NCBI GenBank assembly: GCA_018260615.1
Contig: JAGWDQ010000126.1
Location: 1-11,710 of the forward strand
Direction of reading: 5' to 3'
DNA: 11,710 nucleotides
From: Candidatus Altarchaeum sp.
GTDB taxonomy: Archaea > Altiarchaeota > Altiarchaeia > Altiarchaeales > Altiarchaeaceae
Part shown: piece after piece, positions 1-9,438 of the stretch
How the letters are laid out: every line of letters begins with the position of its first letter
Numbering within the stretch: the stretch's first letter is position 1
Program-made: the position numbers and the translations under genes
The notes under the pieces: generated by a model
What the model was told of the DNA's origin: nothing
Databases searched by the model: none
The model's input: only the letters and a program-made list of their open reading frames with translations

Positions 1-1645
1 GTTCTGTTGTGTTTGAAGCAACACTCTTTGAAACATTTAAATCGGCTTTGTAAACTGTTATGTTTGTTGTATCCGCAGTAATTGTAACTGTTGTCTGATT
101 ATTATCTAAATCCAATCCTGTTGCATTTGCAAAATTTTCATTTTGTTCTTCTGCTACACATGTCTTTGTATAAACCGAGAAATTTAAAATTATACCCTGG
201 TTTGGTTTTAGTAAGAAATTTTCTTCAAGAGAAAAGGTTATATTTTGCTGGCCGTTTGCTTCGGGAGTAGTAATGTTGGTGATATTGACATCTGTTGAAG
301 GGGTGTAATTTATCTGCAATCCGAGAAAATCAAAACCAATTGTGGCTCCTGCTAGTGGAGTTACATTGCACTTAAACTGAGGGGTTGTGAAATCACTTTT
401 TATCATATCAAGCAAAGGAGAAGAAGTATCTGTACTATTACAGGTAAAATTTATATCGCTTGAACCCAATAAAGTAGTACTGTTTGGAAAACTACAAACT
501 TCTTGCCATTGTCCAGATGTTTTATTAAACCAGGAAATATTTACACGTGCATTTACACTTATTACATCTCCATTAACTTCGCAAACAACACTTGCATTGT
601 TAATAGCATTTACGGCATAAATACTTGTATTGAATGTTCCATTGACTGCATAAGACTCCATTGCAGACAATGTCTTTGTTGCTCTATTATCATCGGAAGC
701 ATTTATCTTTGCAGTTACATCCGTTCCATCACTGTCTGTTGCACTTACAGGTCCTTTATATCCCCAGGTTTTATTTTCAATGTTTCCGATAAATGTTGCA
801 GTTGTATTTCCCGCATAATTATAGCTAAAGCATTTTGGCAGGTGATCTGTTATGTTTATTGCTTTAATTGTTGCATTTCCGATATTGGTTAAATTTATTG
901 AAATTTTTGTGAAATTTCCCGGTTCTGTTGTCTGTTCCCATGTTTTCTTTATTTGTGCATAAGGATAATAAACTGTAACATTTGCTGATGTCTTTGTAAC
1001 ACTTATAGCATTCCCGCTTTCGTTTACTCCTTCGGCACTTGCGTTATTAATATTTGTCCATTCACTTGCATTTGAGGTTGTATATGCTCTAAACATCAGG
1101 GTTAAATTTTCGCCCGGAAGTAATTTGTTATCCGGAATTGATGTTGCTGCAAAAGTGCATACTAATCCCGCATTACAATTTGTAACAAAACAACCGCTTG
1201 TATTTCCTAAATGTGTTAAATTCCACTTAACTAATTGTCTGTCTCCCGGAGAAGCAGGATATGATGTTTCGGTATTTGCATCGTTCCATGTTCTGTTATA
1301 TGTTAAATCTGAAATTGCGGTACAAGTAACAAACCCCACAACCACCGTGCATGTTCCAGAACAGTTCTTCCACACTCTTTCATATTTTATGCTTGCAAAA
1401 TTTTCCGCTTCATTTAATGTCTTATTAAATTTCCATCCGTTTGGCAGCAAGTCGGTAATGTTTATTTTACTAATATTCCCCGACTCGTTATTCTGAATTT
1501 TTATTGTCCAGTCCGTCCAATTTCCCGGCTCCGATGTTAAAGTACTTGCGGTTTTTTCTATAAACACAGATGTGGTCAGAGTTACATAAACCAATCCTGC
1601 CAATAAGAATAAACCAGTCAAAAGTACAATTTTTCCGCTATTCAT
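1..1645 (-). CDS. Large exported DUF11-repeat (Ig-like) surface glycoprotein; 3'-partial, at least 548 aa, runs off the left edge
   Basis: Manual translation from ATG at 1645 has no stop to position 1. N-terminal hydrophobic signal MNSGKIVLLTGLFLLAGLVYVTLTT. Three DUF11-style starts: IEKTASTLTSEPGNWTDWTIKIQN..NITDLLPNGWKF; AQIKKTWEQTTEPGNFTKISINLTNIGN..NITDHLPKCFSY; ADLNVSKSVASNTTE. About 40 N-x-S/T sequons. Not in the supplied ORF track. Confidence 0.88.
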   Translation of the reverse strand, partial: MNSGKIVLLTGLFLLAGLVYVTLTTSVFIEKTASTLTSEPGNWTDWTIKIQNNESGNISKINITDLLPNGWKFNKTLNEAENFASIKYERVWKNCSGTCTVVVGFVTCTAISDLTYNRTWNDANTETSYPASPGDRQLVKWNLTHLGNTSGCFVTNCNAGLVCTFAATSIPDNKLLPGENLTLMFRAYTTSNASEWTNINNASAEGVNESGNAISVTKTSANVTVYYPYAQIKKTWEQTTEPGNFTKISINLTNIGNATIKAINITDHLPKCFSYNYAGNTTATFIGNIENKTWGYKGPVSATDSDGTDVTAKINASDDNRATKTLSAMESYAVNGTFNTSIYAVNAINNASVVCEVNGDVISVNARVNISWFNKTSGQWQEVCSFPNSTTLLGSSDINFTCNSTDTSSPLLDMIKSDFTTPQFKCNVTPLAGATIGFDFLGLQINYTPSTDVNITNITTPEANGQQNITFSLEENFLLKPNQGIILNFSVYTKTCVAEEQNENFANATGLDLDNNQTTVTITADTTNITVYKADLNVSKSVASNTTE

Positions 1646-1690: not shown

Positions 1691-2842
1691 TTACAGCAAT
1701 GATTTAAACCACGATGTAAATTTAACTTTCTGAATTGTAAATGTTTTGTCTAGTTCTATTATTTTTTTATCCTCTAACTTTTTGAGTGCCATTGACAAAC
1801 TTGACTTCGGAAGATTTGTACCTCGCGATATTTCCGTTCTTAATAAGTCCCCGCCGTGTTCCATAAGAAGATTAATAACAATTCTCTCGTTTTCTGTTAA
1901 AGATGACAATAAATTTTCTCTCTCTTTTTGAGTTCTCTCTTTAAACATTTCGTCTCTTTCTTTCTCTTTTCTTTCCGCTTCTGCTTTATATTCTTCTTTT
2001 TTCTTATCTTCCGCAGAAGATAAAGATACGGGTGCATTTCCATCCGGGGTTGTCTGAGATGCCGGGATAGTTGTGGGGGCGGGTGTCGGGAGGGTTGCAG
2101 ATGTTATCATTGTTACACGGGACTTTTCTTCCGCTTCCTTTTCTTCCGCTTCTTTTTCTTCCGCTTCTTTTTCTTCTGTTTTTTTTATGCCTGTCTCAAC
2201 TTTATCAATTTTCTCTTCTGTTTTTTCTACATTATGCTGGACCCGCAAAATATAAAAGAACACGAGAATTATCCCTGAAGCAAAGATTGCGAGGAATAAC
2301 AACCAATCCTGATGAGTATAATTTAGTGTATTCTGCGGATTATTTGTGCCACTAGTTCCGTTACTTTTTACAAAATTTGATGACGAATCATTTGTTAAAT
2401 TTTCTATTTTAAATATGCCTTCAAGTGCGGGAATATCTATATCAGAAAAATTTGTGTATGCGGTAATCAGTGAGAAATCAAGTGTTTTTGTCTCATTTTC
2501 CCTGACTGTCAGGTTTATGCTGTCCAAATATAAATTTTCTTTGCTGTCAATATATGTCACAACAACAAGGTAATTTCCGGAAGTTAAATTTATTGCATAC
2601 TTTCCATTCACTGTTGCTACCTGCTGCATACTGCCTGCACTGTCATAAATTTTTACTTCCGCACCATTTAAATTTTCTCCGTTCGCTCCAATGACATTTC
2701 CTTTGATTTCCGCCGCCAGTGAACATTGCAAAATTGAGGTAATCAAAAGCATTATTAAAAGCAATATGACTGCAGCAGATACAAAATTCCTTAAATTTTT
2801 TGGTTTTATTTTGGTTTTATTTTGTTTCGTTTCGGGAGACAT
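1691..2842 (-). CDS. Membrane-tethered winged-HTH protein (COG2512-like): signal peptide, carboxypeptidase-regulatory-like beta-sandwich, TM helix, charged linker, C-terminal wHTH
   Basis: 383 aa. Hydrophobic N-terminus; IKGNVIGANGENLNGAEVKIYD..NGKYAINLTSGNYLVVVTY is typical of the CarboxypepD_reg-like fold; TM WLLFLAIFASGIILVFFYIL; C-terminal LTENERIVINLLMEHGGDLLRTEISRGTNLPKSSLSMALKKLEDKKIIEL is wHTH-like. Confidence 0.8.
   Translation of the reverse strand: MSPETKQNKTKIKPKNLRNFVSAAVILLLIMLLITSILQCSLAAEIKGNVIGANGENLNGAEVKIYDSAGSMQQVATVNGKYAINLTSGNYLVVVTYIDSKENLYLDSINLTVRENETKTLDFSLITAYTNFSDIDIPALEGIFKIENLTNDSSSNFVKSNGTSGTNNPQNTLNYTHQDWLLFLAIFASGIILVFFYILRVQHNVEKTEEKIDKVETGIKKTEEKEAEEKEAEEKEAEEKSRVTMITSATLPTPAPTTIPASQTTPDGNAPVSLSSAEDKKKEEYKAEAERKEKERDEMFKERTQKERENLLSSLTENERIVINLLMEHGGDLLRTEISRGTNLPKSSLSMALKKLEDKKIIELDKTFTIQKVKFTSWFKSLL
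2124..2176. repeat. 15-bp coding tandem repeat, about 3.5 units, encoding (E/T)EEKEAEEKEAEEKEAEEK
   Basis: TTTTCTTCCGCTTC(C/T) at 2124-2138, 2139-2153 and 2154-2168, with a partial unit to 2176. Confidence 0.95.
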
Positions 2843-3208
2843 TTTCTAATGTATTTTTTAACATTTCTATATCTTTTTCCATTTCGGATAGGTTGTAGTT
2901 AGCACTTTCATTAATTGCCTGTTCCATGTCAATAAGCGACTGATATTCATCTTCCGGTGAAGGTGTAAAATATGTATCCTGAGGCACATATTCCATATCC
3001 GTATAATCTTCAGGATACTCTCCCGGGCTGGTTGTCATGATGAGATAAATTATACATAAAGATATTATAAACAAAATTCCTATGAGCAAAGTTTTCTTAT
3101 CTATTTTTGTAAATAGTGATGATAATTTTATATTTTTCATTTTGAAAAATTTATGTTTTTTCCTTCCCATGCCTTGTTAACACACAGACCTTTATTGCAC
3201 GCTTTATA
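2772..3208. repeat. Tandem segmental duplication, copy A (437 bp)
   Basis: Aligns with 3210-3625: 29 bp identical at the left end, 113 bp identical at the right end, about 26 substitutions in the 261-bp middle, and a net 21-bp length difference. Confidence 0.97.
2817..3140 (-). CDS. Small single-pass membrane protein, paralog A (107 aa)
   Basis: Basic N-terminus, TM LLIGILFIISLCIIYLIM, acidic P/Y/E/D-rich C-terminal part with NES and NLS sequons. I prefer the start at 3140 (MKNIKL) over 3170 because in the paralog the equivalent ATG overlaps the upstream stop as ATGA. Confidence 0.85.
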   Translation of the reverse strand: MKNIKLSSLFTKIDKKTLLIGILFIISLCIIYLIMTTSPGEYPEDYTDMEYVPQDTYFTPSPEDEYQSLIDMEQAINESANYNLSEMEKDIEMLKNTLENVSRNETK

Positions 3209-3259
3209 AGCAGCAGATACAAAATTCCTTAAATTTTTATGACTGGTTTTTGGAGACAT
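3137..3259 (-). CDS. Putative 40-aa chimeric junction ORF MSPKTSHKNLRNFVSAAYKACNKGLCVNKAWEGKNINFSK
   Basis: Open frame from ATG 3259 to TGA 3139-3137. The first 17 aa correspond to the N-terminus of the 383-aa gene and the last 23 aa are identical to the C-terminus of the 433-aa gene. Translation is not demonstrated. Confidence 0.4.
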   Translation of the reverse strand: MSPKTSHKNLRNFVSAAYKACNKGLCVNKAWEGKNINFSK

Positions 3260-3625
3260 TTTCTAATGTATCTTCTAACATTTCCATATCTTTTTCCATT
3301 TCGGATAGATTGTAGTTAGCACTTTCATTAAGTGCATGTTCCATCTCAATAAGGGACTGCTCTTTATCTTCCGGTGAAGGCGTGGAATATGTATCGGGAG
3401 GTATATATTCCGTATCCGTATAATCTTCAGGATACTCTCCCGGGCCGGTTGTCATGATGAGATAAATTATACATAAAGATATTATAAACAAAATTCCTAC
3501 AATTATAGTTTCCTTATCTATTTTTGTAAATAGTGATGATAATTTTATATTTTTCATTTTGAAAAATTTATGTTTTTTCCTTCCCATGCCTTGTTAACAC
3601 ACAGACCTTTATTGCACGCTTTATA
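3210..3625. repeat. Tandem segmental duplication, copy B (416 bp)
   Basis: Begins GCAGCAGATACAAAATTCCTTAAATTTTT like 2772 and ends CCTTTATTGCACGCTTTATA like 3208; the copies are separated by one base (A3209). Confidence 0.97.
3237..3557 (-). CDS. Small single-pass membrane protein, paralog B (106 aa)
   Basis: 85/102 aa identical to paralog A up to ENVS; ATG 3557 overlaps the TGA (3556-3554) of the upstream gene as ATGA. Confidence 0.85.
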   Translation of the reverse strand: MKNIKLSSLFTKIDKETIIVGILFIISLCIIYLIMTTGPGEYPEDYTDTEYIPPDTYSTPSPEDKEQSLIEMEHALNESANYNLSEMEKDMEMLEDTLENVSKNQS

Positions 3626-4855
3626 TGTTCCGGTTCCTGTTAATGTGGCATTTCCGTTTCCCGTGATTGCTATATTTATATCCTTTCCGCTTATCTCAAT
3701 TATTAAATTATTTCCTGTAATTTCAATATTTCCTTCTCCGCCATAGACCTTACCTTCGCCTGAATTTATCTCTTTTAAATTTTTGGGAGAAATTTGTACG
3801 CTGCTTAAGTCCCCTTTTAATGTTACGCTTCCGATAACATAAATTTTAACATTTGCCTTGCTTTCATTATCTCCCTCCCTTATATTTATTACCGCTTTCC
3901 CGTCCCCTTTTGCTACGAATGTTGAATCGGCCGATTCCAGTTCGCTGAGCCATCCGTCAGGGATTGAATTGTATATGTCATTTAATCCGGTTTTTGTTTT
4001 ATAGAGTGATGTGTATGTGCTTTTAAATAAGTTCTCTGCTTCTGCCAGTGACTCGGATGTAGACAGATTCATAAGATTGACGCACTTTTGATAATTTGCA
4101 TAAGACTGGTTTAACAGGTTATTTAGTTTGCATAATTTTTCCTCAATCTCCGTCGTATTATGTCCGGATGCTTTAAGTTGTGCAATATTCTCATTGATCT
4201 TTAAGGAGTCCTCAACCAGGCCGGCAATTACTATTTTCGTCTTATACTTTAATATAGTAGTGACAACCATTCCCCTCATGTTTTGTGACTGGGTGTATGT
4301 TTCCTGCAACTCTTTAATAAAATTTTTAAGCATATCTACATTTAGCTGCGATTTTGAGTCCGTTTGTGATGTGCTTTCATTTAATCTTTTTTTAATATCT
4401 CTTATTTTGTCCAGTAATCGGTTAATCCGGGAAATTTGTTCCTTTTTTGTTATATCATCAAACGAATTCTCTGATAAAATTCTTTTCTTTAACATTTCGT
4501 TATAATTTTCCAGCACAATAGACAGATTCATGGTAAAGTCCCCGGTGGAGCTGATAAAATTTTCGTATTTTTCATCATTTTTGTTTTCAAGATATTTTTC
4601 CCTTGAAATAAGCCACATCGCCTTTGCTTCGCTGTAATTTGATAATGATTCAAAATAGTTATTTTTTGCGATTTCATAGTCATATTCCAGTGCGGACTTA
4701 TTTAAATTTACATCTTCTCCGATAACCACATTCGTTCCTGCAAGTAAAAGTAAAACCAAAATAAAGAAAAGAAAAGTAATGTATGTAGTTGAATTTACTG
4801 TTTTACATTTTCCTGAAAAATTTTTAAATTTTTCCATAGCCCCCGAATTAAACAT
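3554..4855 (-). CDS. Exported/membrane-anchored protein: long helical (coiled-coil) region plus Gly-rich beta-strand C-terminal domain; function unknown
   Basis: 433 aa (alternative start at 4837). Hydrophobic segment YITFLFFILVLLLLAG, heptad-like E/K/L-rich middle, and C-terminal GEGNIEITGNNLIIEISGKDINIAITGNGNATLTGTGTY; several sequons. Confidence 0.85.
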   Translation of the reverse strand: MFNSGAMEKFKNFSGKCKTVNSTTYITFLFFILVLLLLAGTNVVIGEDVNLNKSALEYDYEIAKNNYFESLSNYSEAKAMWLISREKYLENKNDEKYENFISSTGDFTMNLSIVLENYNEMLKKRILSENSFDDITKKEQISRINRLLDKIRDIKKRLNESTSQTDSKSQLNVDMLKNFIKELQETYTQSQNMRGMVVTTILKYKTKIVIAGLVEDSLKINENIAQLKASGHNTTEIEEKLCKLNNLLNQSYANYQKCVNLMNLSTSESLAEAENLFKSTYTSLYKTKTGLNDIYNSIPDGWLSELESADSTFVAKGDGKAVINIREGDNESKANVKIYVIGSVTLKGDLSSVQISPKNLKEINSGEGKVYGGEGNIEITGNNLIIEISGKDINIAITGNGNATLTGTGTYKACNKGLCVNKAWEGKNINFSK

Positions 4856-4968: not shown

Positions 4969-5721
4969 ATGGAAATTAAAAAATTAAAGAACTTCCTTGA
5001 CGAATACCTTAAAATTGCGGAAATTGAGGATGTGTCTGTAAATGGGTTGCAGGTTGAAGGAAAGAAAAATGTCAATAAAATCTGCTTTGCGGTTGATGCG
5101 TGCGCGGAAACATTTAAATTAGCAAAGAAGGAAAATGCAGATATGTTATTTGTTCATCACGGAATGATATGGGGAGGAATAAAGAAGGTTACAGGAATAA
5201 ATTACCTGCGATTGAAATTTCTGATTGAGAACAAAATTTCTCTTTATGCTTCACATTTACCGCTTGACAAACACGAAGAAGTAGGAAACAACATACAATT
5301 TTTAAAAATTTTCGGAATAAATGAAGCAATTGAGGACTTCGGGACATATCACGGAATAAAGATAGGGTATGCAGGAAGGTTTGAAAAGGAAAAAAATTTA
5401 AGCGATTTTGTCAGCGAGATTGAAAAACAACTGAATACAAAATGCAAAATTTTAAAATTTGGAAAAGAGAAAATAAAAAGTGTCGGAGTTGTTTCCGGTG
5501 GTGCCGCTTCTTTAATTGATGAAGCAATTGAGAATGTTGACTGCTTTGTAACCGGAGAGCCATCGCATCAGGTTTATCACATCGCAAAGGAAGGAAAAAT
5601 TAATGTAATTTTTGCAGGACATTATGCAACAGAAACGGTTGGAGTAAAAGCAATGGCAGAGTTCATCGGCAAAAAATTTGGAATTGAAACGAAATTTATT
5701 GATGTGCCGACTGGACTTTAA
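4969..5721 (+). CDS. nif3: Nif3-like dinuclear metal center hexameric protein (YbgI/DUF34 family)
   Basis: 250 aa with family motifs NGLQVEG, FAVDA, FVHHG, ASHLPLDKH, VTGE and GHYATE. Confidence 0.95.
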   Translation: MEIKKLKNFLDEYLKIAEIEDVSVNGLQVEGKKNVNKICFAVDACAETFKLAKKENADMLFVHHGMIWGGIKKVTGINYLRLKFLIENKISLYASHLPLDKHEEVGNNIQFLKIFGINEAIEDFGTYHGIKIGYAGRFEKEKNLSDFVSEIEKQLNTKCKILKFGKEKIKSVGVVSGGAASLIDEAIENVDCFVTGEPSHQVYHIAKEGKINVIFAGHYATETVGVKAMAEFIGKKFGIETKFIDVPTGL

Positions 5722-5769
5722 ATTTTTATTTTCCGAAATAATTGCTCAACTGCAAAAAAATCTGCTCGG

Positions 5770-7311
5770 CTAATGCGGACTTTTGCTATGAACCTTGATT
5801 ATCATCTCGGCAGTAGTCCTTCCTGATAAGGCAACTGTTATAGTTCCGCCTCCTGATGTTGTCCAATGACCGGCCAAATACAAATTTTTAACAGGCGTCT
5901 CGGGTTGCAACCTACTCGTGCCGCTTTGATCCGGAGTTGAAGCCCAGCCATACGCTGCTCCTTCAGAGTTCTGAGTATATCGTTCCAAAGTTAAAGGAGT
6001 CGCTGCATCACTCAGGATAATGTGCTTTGACAATTCGGGTATAACTCTTTCGGCTGTTTTGATTAGTTGATGCATTTTTTCATCTTTTAGTTTTTTATAC
6101 GAACTTCCTTTTTTGCCATTTTCTGTTCCCCAATTTTCATTATAAGTATATGGAACCGGATAGATTAGTCCGATGATGTGCTTGTTATCAGGAGCTAAAG
6201 TAGTGTCATTCAATGTAGGTATATTAATTCCGCAGCCAAGCTCAAATTTACCTTGAAGGCATGAATCATATATATGGTCAGTATCATAGGAAGGATAACA
6301 AAATATCTCATACTCATTGATTCCCTTATCTCTTGGATTCATATCAACGCCTAACCACACCTGAAAAAAAGAGACAGATGGTCCCATTTGATTTAAACTA
6401 TTCAAGAACTTACTGTTCAGTTTCCCCGGTTCTATCATCTTCAAAAAGGTCTGTCTTGCATCAGCATTAGAGACAACATATTTTGCATTTATTTTATCCC
6501 CTTTTGCTGTTTCCACTCCCATCGCCTTGTTATTCTCTATGAGGATTTTTGTAACCTTATTGCCCAACTGAAGTTCTCCGCCATATTTTTTCAGTGCTTT
6601 TGCTAGTATGTTAGCTAAAACCTGACTCCCGCCTTTTGGATAATAGTGACCTTCGAAGTGAGCACTATAAAGATAACCAGCCATTTGCGTAGCCGAGACC
6701 TTAGAAGGAGGCAATCCAACATAAGGCCATCCGGAGGAGATTATGGATCTTAATTTATCATCTTCGATGAAATCTGCCAGCATTTCTGCAAAAGTTTTCT
6801 TGTAATACTTAAAAATCAGTGGAAATTTCAACGGAACAAATATTTTGTCCCATATAAGTAAAGGATTTGGTAGTTTTTCTGCCTCTTCTTTCAACCCCTT
6901 TATTGTATTGAATAGTTTAGAAATCCCTTTTTCTTCTTTTGGAAACTTCTTTGAGAGCATTGAGATATATTCATTTAAATCCGCAGGAATTGAAAATGAT
7001 TCATCACCGAAGAAAACCCTATAAAGAGGATCAATTTTGTGCAGTTCAATTTCTTTTTCAACCTCTAACTCTTTGAGAATTTGATAGAATCTGCCTCTTT
7101 CTCCCAGACCTTCTGAAAAGTGCACAGCAGCATCAAAGATAAATCCGTTTCTCTTAAAAGATGTGCAATATCCGCCCGGAATAGAATGCTGTTCAATGAC
7201 TAAAGTTTTAAGTCCGCTCTTAGCAAGGATGGCTCCGCATGTAAGACCTCCAAGACCCGCTCCAATTATTACGACATCATATTTTTTCACCTCGTTTTCT
7301 TCCATAACCAT
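5770..7311 (-). CDS. FAD-dependent oxidoreductase, phytoene desaturase/retinol saturase superfamily (COG1233)
   Basis: 513 aa; Rossmann motif VVIIGAGLGGL..LVIEQHSIPGGYCTSFKRNGFIFD, YYPKGGSQ, ATPLTLERYT and NLYLAGHW. Confidence 0.9.
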   Translation of the reverse strand: MVMEENEVKKYDVVIIGAGLGGLTCGAILAKSGLKTLVIEQHSIPGGYCTSFKRNGFIFDAAVHFSEGLGERGRFYQILKELEVEKEIELHKIDPLYRVFFGDESFSIPADLNEYISMLSKKFPKEEKGISKLFNTIKGLKEEAEKLPNPLLIWDKIFVPLKFPLIFKYYKKTFAEMLADFIEDDKLRSIISSGWPYVGLPPSKVSATQMAGYLYSAHFEGHYYPKGGSQVLANILAKALKKYGGELQLGNKVTKILIENNKAMGVETAKGDKINAKYVVSNADARQTFLKMIEPGKLNSKFLNSLNQMGPSVSFFQVWLGVDMNPRDKGINEYEIFCYPSYDTDHIYDSCLQGKFELGCGINIPTLNDTTLAPDNKHIIGLIYPVPYTYNENWGTENGKKGSSYKKLKDEKMHQLIKTAERVIPELSKHIILSDAATPLTLERYTQNSEGAAYGWASTPDQSGTSRLQPETPVKNLYLAGHWTTSGGGTITVALSGRTTAEMIIKVHSKSPH

Positions 7312-7427
7312 TTTAAAAAACTTGTAAATAAATATAAATATGAATATAAATACAAACTTTCATAAAATAATTTAATTACCTCCCAAGTTTCCCGCTCACC
7401 TGTAAAAGTTTGGGCATAATTTTTGTT

Positions 7428-7470
7428 TTTACGAGTAATTAATTTTTCAAATTTTAAAATTACCCGTGAA
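7428..7470. repeat. Imperfect inverted repeat, 13-bp arms (11/13) with 17-bp spacer
   Basis: TTTACGAGTAATT (7428-7440) versus AATTACCCGTGAA (7458-7470, reverse complement TTCACGGGTAATT). Confidence 0.6.
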
Positions 7471-7618
7471 TTTTTTATCGTACAGGAAAGTTCGTTTTAT
7501 TGTTCTCTAATCTCGCTGTTGCTCGGATATTTTCAAAAACTCCGCGTTTTGAAAATCGCACCAAGACACGGAGACACAAAGGGCAATGTTGCTCTGTGAC
7601 TTTGTGGCTTTGTGTGAG
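7469..7618. repeat. Dispersed repeat copy 1 (with a 50-bp internal insert relative to copy 2)
   Basis: 7469-7508 equals 9227-9266 (40/40); 7559-7618 matches 9269-9328 (59/60); 7509-7558 stands where copy 2 has CA. Confidence 0.95.
7529..7556. repeat. Hairpin inside the 50-bp insert
   Basis: ATTTTCAAAAAC-TCCGC-GTTTTGAAAAT: an 11-bp stem with one bulged A and a 5-nt loop. Confidence 0.85.
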
Positions 7619-7736
7619 TATTCTTCTGATTTTTTTAATAGTGGGAAATATGGGTTACCTACAAGAAAATAAAAATATATTTTTGGGATTTATAAGGAAA
7701 TTAACGAAGTCGTGTTAAGTGAAGGATTTTACTTAT

Positions 7737-9226: not shown

Positions 9227-9328
9227 AATTTTTTATCGTACAGGAAAGTTCGTTTTATTGTTCTCTCACACCAAGACACGGAGACACAAAGGGCAATGTT
9301 GCTCTGTGACTTTGTGACTTTGTGTGAG
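9227..9328. repeat. Dispersed repeat copy 2 (102 bp): 40-bp unique arm plus a 64-bp imperfect hairpin built from 8-bp units
   Basis: Matches copy 1. 9265-9328 is CTCACAC CAAGACAC GGAGACAC AAAGGGCAATGTTGCTCT GTGACTTT GTGACTTT GTGTGAG. It ends 5 bp upstream of the NUDIX ATG. Confidence 0.95.
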
Positions 9329-9438
9329 CATTTTTTATGAAAAAGTTTCACTAATCAAAACTTACTTTTAATTTTGCAATTTTCATAAGAATTAGCAATG
9401 CCTGAATAAATATTGAAACTATAATTTTTAATGTGATT

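Follow-up and report, generated by a model that had tools for sequence, protein, structure and literature searches.

A 40-codon open reading frame in an operon of a groundwater-dwelling, Altiarchaeum-related archaeon is the seam of a tandem duplication, at which the head of a regulator-like gene became fused in frame to the tail of the gene for a 433-aa protein. The seam is a head-to-tail duplication with a novel join that is absent in single-copy relatives. In-frame joining is not more than expected by chance, and we consider the ORF (hereafter the mini-ORF) probably a tolerated by-product, in frame by accident, which possibly delivers ribosomes to the small gene downstream (paralog A) if it is translated. 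The window, that is, the whole stretch of 11,710 nt analyzed here (G000:C126:1-11710), comes from a 2.2-Mb assembly with 33% GC. Its nearest named records are Candidatus Altiarchaeum hamiconexum, Ca. Altarchaeum sp. CG2_30_32_3053, and an Altiarchaeales archaeon, and we take the closest assemblies to be those of the Horonobe groundwater series.

The operon is read from the minus strand in the order 433-aa gene, paralog B, mini-ORF, paralog A, 383-aa gene, and DUF11 protein. The features used below are as follows.

3554 to 4855, minus strand: 433-aa gene, the tail donor, with an N-terminal hydrophobic segment, a helical bundle, and a low-confidence C-terminal beta domain (all predicted)
3237 to 3557, minus strand: paralog B, 106 aa, acidic, with one hydrophobic segment and no Pfam domain
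3137 to 3259, minus strand: chimeric junction ORF of 40 codons, from ATG 3259 to TGA 3137, made of the regulator head and the 433-aa gene tail
2817 to 3140, minus strand: paralog A, 107 aa, 81% identical to B, with an ATGA overlap with the mini-ORF and a 26-nt overlap with the regulator
1691 to 2842, minus strand: 383-aa membrane regulator-like gene, the head donor, with CarboxypepD_reg, a hydrophobic segment, and a DUF7343/MarR_2 wHTH
3137 to 3208, minus strand: 72-nt relic of the 433-aa gene 3' end, identical across all seven junction sequences
3210 to 3259, minus strand: relic of the regulator 5' end, a short allele of ancestral length
3209, minus strand: junction base, minus-strand T, the wobble position of Ala17, the same base as in all outgroup regulator heads
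3209 to 3625, minus strand: repeat unit B, 417 bp including the junction base
2772 to 3208, minus strand: repeat unit A, 437 bp, which holds a 21-bp longer regulator head

The small protein encoded by paralogs A and B is restricted to the genus: it was absent outside the genus among the 60 relatives searched, and an Atlas search gave no match. For the 433-aa protein, only five other sequence clusters were found. Its predicted fold had no PDB match at E <= 0.001 (rows for toxins had a TM of about 0.1, which is meaningless) and matched one Atlas cluster, of archaeal hypothetical proteins (TM 0.52). The DUF11 protein (window 1-1645), 3' of the regulator, has a paralog at G000 C43:5300-7234 with 78 to 82% identity.

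Codons 1 to 17 of the mini-ORF (3259 to 3209) are the regulator head, and codons 18 to 40 plus the stop (3208 to 3137) correspond to the final 72 nt of the 433-aa gene, identical to 3625 to 3554. A first-pass annotation, made from the letters of the window, had described this in-frame fusion, a start inside the 3' end of paralog B, and a TGA overlapping the ATG of paralog A; all were confirmed, together with every coordinate given for them. The stop of paralog B at 3237-3239 leaves a 23-nt overlap with the mini-ORF, and the ATGA at 3137-3140 forms a -4 overlap between the mini-ORF and paralog A. The two repeat units (2772-3208 versus 3210-3625) are 88% identical, with identical ends of 113 and 29 bases. 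The event is a single tandem duplication with little or no homology at the join and with breakpoints inside both genes flanking the small gene; the duplicated unit took in both overlaps and the entire small gene. The 433-aa gene and the regulator share one frame in the single-copy operon (-4 + 321 - 23 = 294 nt), so that the 417-bp unit fused them in frame.

The junction, A3209 included, recurs base for base in five other public assemblies, at six loci besides the window. By sequence match, the carriers are L013 (JGI 3300029890), L022 (JGI 3300029891), L017 (ENA ERZ27239246), L025 and L027 (ENA ERZ27239245), and L021 (GCA_017973855.1); these assemblies come from three sources, and some may share raw reads. 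Recurrence of the same junction in five other assemblies points to one origin. Identity to the window is 99.7% for L013 and only about 97% for L021 and L022. The latter two carry different alleles beside the junction, which makes an assembly error very unlikely. An assembler that stitched two small-gene alleles in tandem could leave identical flanks around a divergent middle, as seen here, and there are N gaps in the region in L014 (across the unit, with both flanks present) and in L021. However, such an artefact would have to arise base-exactly across three assembly sources and two strain types, between differing alleles on either side, and with a junction base found in outgroups and in neither present parent. 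We therefore give it almost no credence and, given recurrence across assemblies and strain types, reject it; the junction is real biology. A search for the exact junction pattern in metagenome contigs returned 0 matches, in a set that may omit this genome's or very near records.

Other Altiarchaeum-like loci (G001, G003, L019, L023, L029, and L030) have a single copy of the small gene with the same -4 and -23 overlaps, and the search for related loci yielded only single-copy loci in other species. The first-pass annotation had looked to independent duplications in other strains as a guide to frame. The in-frame junction is indeed shared among strains, but all carriers represent one event (n = 1), and no independent second duplication at the locus was found in the strains and relatives compared.

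Elsewhere in the window, comparison with L013/L015 over 8.9 kb placed all 23 differences in two clusters within the Nif3 (DUF34) gene (5193-5572), which represent either a recombined tract or a chimeric assembly. A gene for a 513-aa FAD-dependent oxidoreductase and the adjacent repeat (window 5727-7730) are missing from L021, in which the GyrI-like and Nif3 genes adjoin (L021:1816-1832). The direct repeats at 7469-7625 and 9227-9335 have matches on dozens of contigs elsewhere in the genome; they are thus dispersed elements (MITE- or REP-like) that are not confined to the NUDIX-GNAT-GyrI block.

Neither present parent has the junction base A3209; both have T, at 2771 and 3626. On the minus strand, T occupies this wobble position in 6/6 outgroup regulator heads (GCT in G001; GTT in G003, L019, and L023; ACT in L029 and L030), and every regulator allele sampled in this species reads GCA there. 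A3209 is probably a retained ancestral regulator base, which is the simplest reading; addition of a base without template, or a point change after the event, is a less simple alternative. If the ancestral base was kept, the unit would be 417 bp and the join blunt or nearly blunt. Under any of these readings, the earlier observation that A3209 is foreign to both parents supports the reality of the junction but does not extend to function. A tuned change at this position was rejected because all six outgroup regulator heads share the base.

The 21-bp length difference between the two regulator heads likewise has an ancestry outside the mini-ORF. The regulator has 383 aa in the window; L022 and L021 lack the insertion and encode a 376-aa form. 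The short head also occurs in G001, L029, and L030, and G003 has a different 27-bp insertion. Since the insertion is a polymorphism of the regulator itself, its multiple of three was set by the regulator frame. It had been offered as evidence for the mini-ORF, a use that we reject on this ground. L025 carries a 47-aa mini-ORF variant (P0019), in which recombination has brought the long regulator head to the junction.

Copy number and alleles vary among strains, as read from assemblies. The small gene has nine within-species alleles with 36 variable sites, and 29/630 site pairs fail the four-gamete test. Copy order and copy type also vary among strains, with mosaic alleles in L021 and L025. L026 has one B-type copy joined straight to the regulator. 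Its 433-aa gene matches that of the duplicated L022 exactly, and the 141-mers that span its unit are absent from the duplicated haplotypes. The single copy in L026 is an apparent collapse of the array to one copy. Recombination between copies after tandem duplication is the general model, and the mosaic alleles, the 47-aa variant, and the collapse to one copy all indicate that this array has recombined since it formed.

A further haplotype is interrupted. In ERZ27239246, paralog B is broken at codon 3/4 (about window 3549-3551) by a DDE insertion sequence in the opposite orientation (PF13613 + PF13359; contig C51 of the genome; L015:4022-4159 and L017:1-132), which has duplicated an AAT target. 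The end of the element supplies a new in-frame ATG, giving a 112-aa product. With the element at that position, this haplotype has no unbroken ribosome chain from the 433-aa gene.

The small gene is far more variable within the species (the window, L021, L022, L025, L026, and L027) than its neighbors: 25 of its 29 variable codons change the amino acid, and its pairwise dN/dS is about 0.7 to 1.7 within the species and about 0.3 between species (flanking genes, 0.1 to 0.4). The excess of amino acid change is not significant (Fisher P = 0.19 and 0.32), and positive selection was rejected on this basis; we propose relaxed or diversifying selection on the acidic domain. This small membrane gene, which varies fast and lies within the repeat, may be of more interest than the seam.

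Breakpoints in both flanking genes copy both overlaps whatever the frame, and the frame is thus the only informative fact about the seam. The rebuilt overlaps had been read as a sign of a relay; since any such duplication reproduces both automatically, they carry no such meaning. The first-pass annotation had also allowed that a random junction is in frame one time in three, and simulated breakpoints agree, with 32% yielding an in-frame ORF ending on ATGA. A further 8 to 28%, depending on the range sampled, stop <=15 nt from the start of paralog A. At the real breakpoint, the gap would be 10 nt after a -1 shift and 63 nt after a +1 shift, so that two of the three frames stop within 10 nt of the paralog A ATG. 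In Haloferax volcanii, gaps of 13 to 14 nt retain 40 to 60% of reinitiation and gaps of 22 to 23 nt abolish it (PMC10666635), and the same two frames would therefore be compatible with some coupling. The in-frame join would accordingly be a one-in-three accident that was then tolerated. Because the origin is single (n = 1), selection for the frame could still have acted.

A scan of the whole genome for tandem duplications gave no other case with this geometry. It has two further tandem pairs of whole genes that persist without a bridging ORF, at C109:15614-16270 and C87:6912-10345 (G000); both are older duplications, 82 to 83% identical. The C109 junction has a 4-codon, ATGA-started relic ORF ending 24 nt short, and the C87 gap is 33 nt. 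Both are a weak control, as their upstream geometry differs from that of the junction locus.

What the mini-ORF might do depends on how ribosomes would enter and leave it, and the statements on translation made here are drawn from sequence geometry. At the exit, the ATGA at 3137-3140 lies within the spacing of about -4 to +3 expected for termination-reinitiation; at the entry, the 23-nt overlap lies outside it. In Escherichia coli, coupling is best at -4 to +3 and none occurs at -25 (PMC12548453), which makes termination-reinitiation doubtful both at the mini-ORF entry (-23) and at the regulator (-26). If translated, the mini-ORF would most likely use the copied regulator ATG for de novo initiation, and the regulator presumably also starts de novo from the same ATG context. 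The mini-ORF would then end on ATGA and pass ribosomes to paralog A as a leader cistron, a role limited to paralog A; regulator output should depend little on it. The proposal that the mini-ORF preserves termination-reinitiation through the operon thus survives in part: the ATGA could feed paralog A, but the steps at -23 and -26 are doubtful. The case for a maintained relay is further weakened by the species' variation, in which a single-copy allele and an allele interrupted by the insertion sequence both exist.

A stricter explanation is that duplications arose in random frames and only the in-frame one was kept, because paralog A needs ATGA termination-reinitiation just as the single-copy gene would need it behind the 433-aa gene. 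The genome offers this explanation some support. The ATGA overlap is kept in every relative, and -4 is the commonest gene spacing (52/814 crude pairs), with +1 second. Shine-Dalgarno (SD) motifs are scarce by crude gene calls (7/58 overlap genes and 3/360 leading genes), although the 16S rRNA retains the anti-SD, and before paralog A a GGAAGG lies 21 nt from ATG 3140, not at the usual spacing. In H. volcanii, overlapping genes show strict coupling (PMC6728339), and the junction is common to strains about 97% identical. Against this, there is one event with a prior of 1/3, or 2/3 if the frame with the 10-nt gap is counted; the entry overlap is -23; and the C109 and C87 pairs do without a bridging ORF, with the reservation on upstream geometry given above. 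The single-copy allele of L026 exists as well. In addition, starts genome-wide have T-rich and then A-rich bases before the ATG (crude calls), and the paralog A start shares this general context and has weak structure (-4.3 kcal/mol over 60 nt), so independent initiation may be possible. We regard filtering of this kind as unlikely for this locus, and chance followed by tolerance as the probable account.

The 72-nt relic bears on the same choice. It has 0 substitutions in the seven junction sequences, and native tails differ from it by 0 to 2 bases. The probability of zero relic changes is 0.42 to 0.12 at strain-level divergence (1.2 to 3%) and about 0.013 at half the paralog divergence (6%; dS between A and B, 0.12), the latter if the junction is as old as the paralog split and drifting. 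Because a relay that needs only the frame would tolerate substitutions, invariance favors youth or homogenization, and we infer that it points to a young junction or recombinational homogenization more than to a relay. It is also the one loose end of the by-product reading and keeps frame filtering alive as a rival.

Invariance could alternatively reflect a function of the 40-aa peptide itself, for example in competing with the Cys-containing C-terminal hairpin of the 433-aa protein. All seven sequences have the relic without a single nucleotide change, and gene callers predict the ORF in two assemblies (L017 and L021). Yet silent sites are invariant too, as recent spread or conversion predicts (P = 0.12 to 0.42 at strain-level divergence), and the head has been freely exchanged for an allele 7 residues longer (P0019). 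A selection test on the mini-ORF had no relic substitutions to score; the ORF exists in 40- and 47-aa variants and was absent in the other species searched. In the predicted beta domain of the 433-aa protein, the junction falls within strand 401-415 (pLDDT about 50 to 60 there), leaving a peptide without the regulator hydrophobic segment and with only the last strands of that low-confidence domain. It has no targeting segment and only a partial fold, and no family match was obtained (none in NCBIfam above the cut-off). A function of its own is highly improbable; the peptide is more probably a fragment left in the cytoplasm with no function, in which a signal n-region that lacks its hydrophobic core is followed by about two and a half beta strands.

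Alone, the seam is of little weight, one more duplication junction in frame by chance. Its value is as a worked control, in which the rebuilt overlaps, the 3n indel, and the silent junction change are each explained by ancestry. A bolder reading is that, in an archaeon that hardly uses SD motifs, duplications in overlapping operons survive only if in frame, so that the ORF is a selected ribosome-delivery cistron licensing a variable-copy, fast-changing surface-protein gene. We hold this to be quite doubtful; if it were true, the invariant relic would reflect that constraint. Should frame filtering hold across many duplications, translational coupling would limit which duplications persist in operons.

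Among known systems, MIRUs, ribosome-delivering uORFs, and bicistronic designs (PMC12548453) share with the mini-ORF a short ORF ending at -4 to the next gene, and by this geometry any role of the mini-ORF would be ribosome delivery. A literature search for chimeric junction ORFs with coupling gave no direct precedent beyond these. Unlike a MIRU, the mini-ORF occurs at a single locus in its own genome, is neither dispersed nor mobile, and is a by-product, a chimera built from two host genes; what is repeated is a 417-bp unit with a whole gene in it. With ATGA termination-reinitiation (PMC6728339, PMC10666635), the mini-ORF shares the canonical -4 geometry at its exit. It differs in an entry at -23, outside the efficient range of -4 to +3 (PMC12548453), and in having no SD at the usual spacing, and coupling in Altiarchaeales is putative. 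The closest likeness is to tandem duplication with a microhomology or no-homology join (PMC11721125), with which the locus shares one novel join inherited unchanged, copy mosaics, and an apparent collapse. Nothing essential differs from that model; the join here happens to be in frame between two overlapping neighbors.
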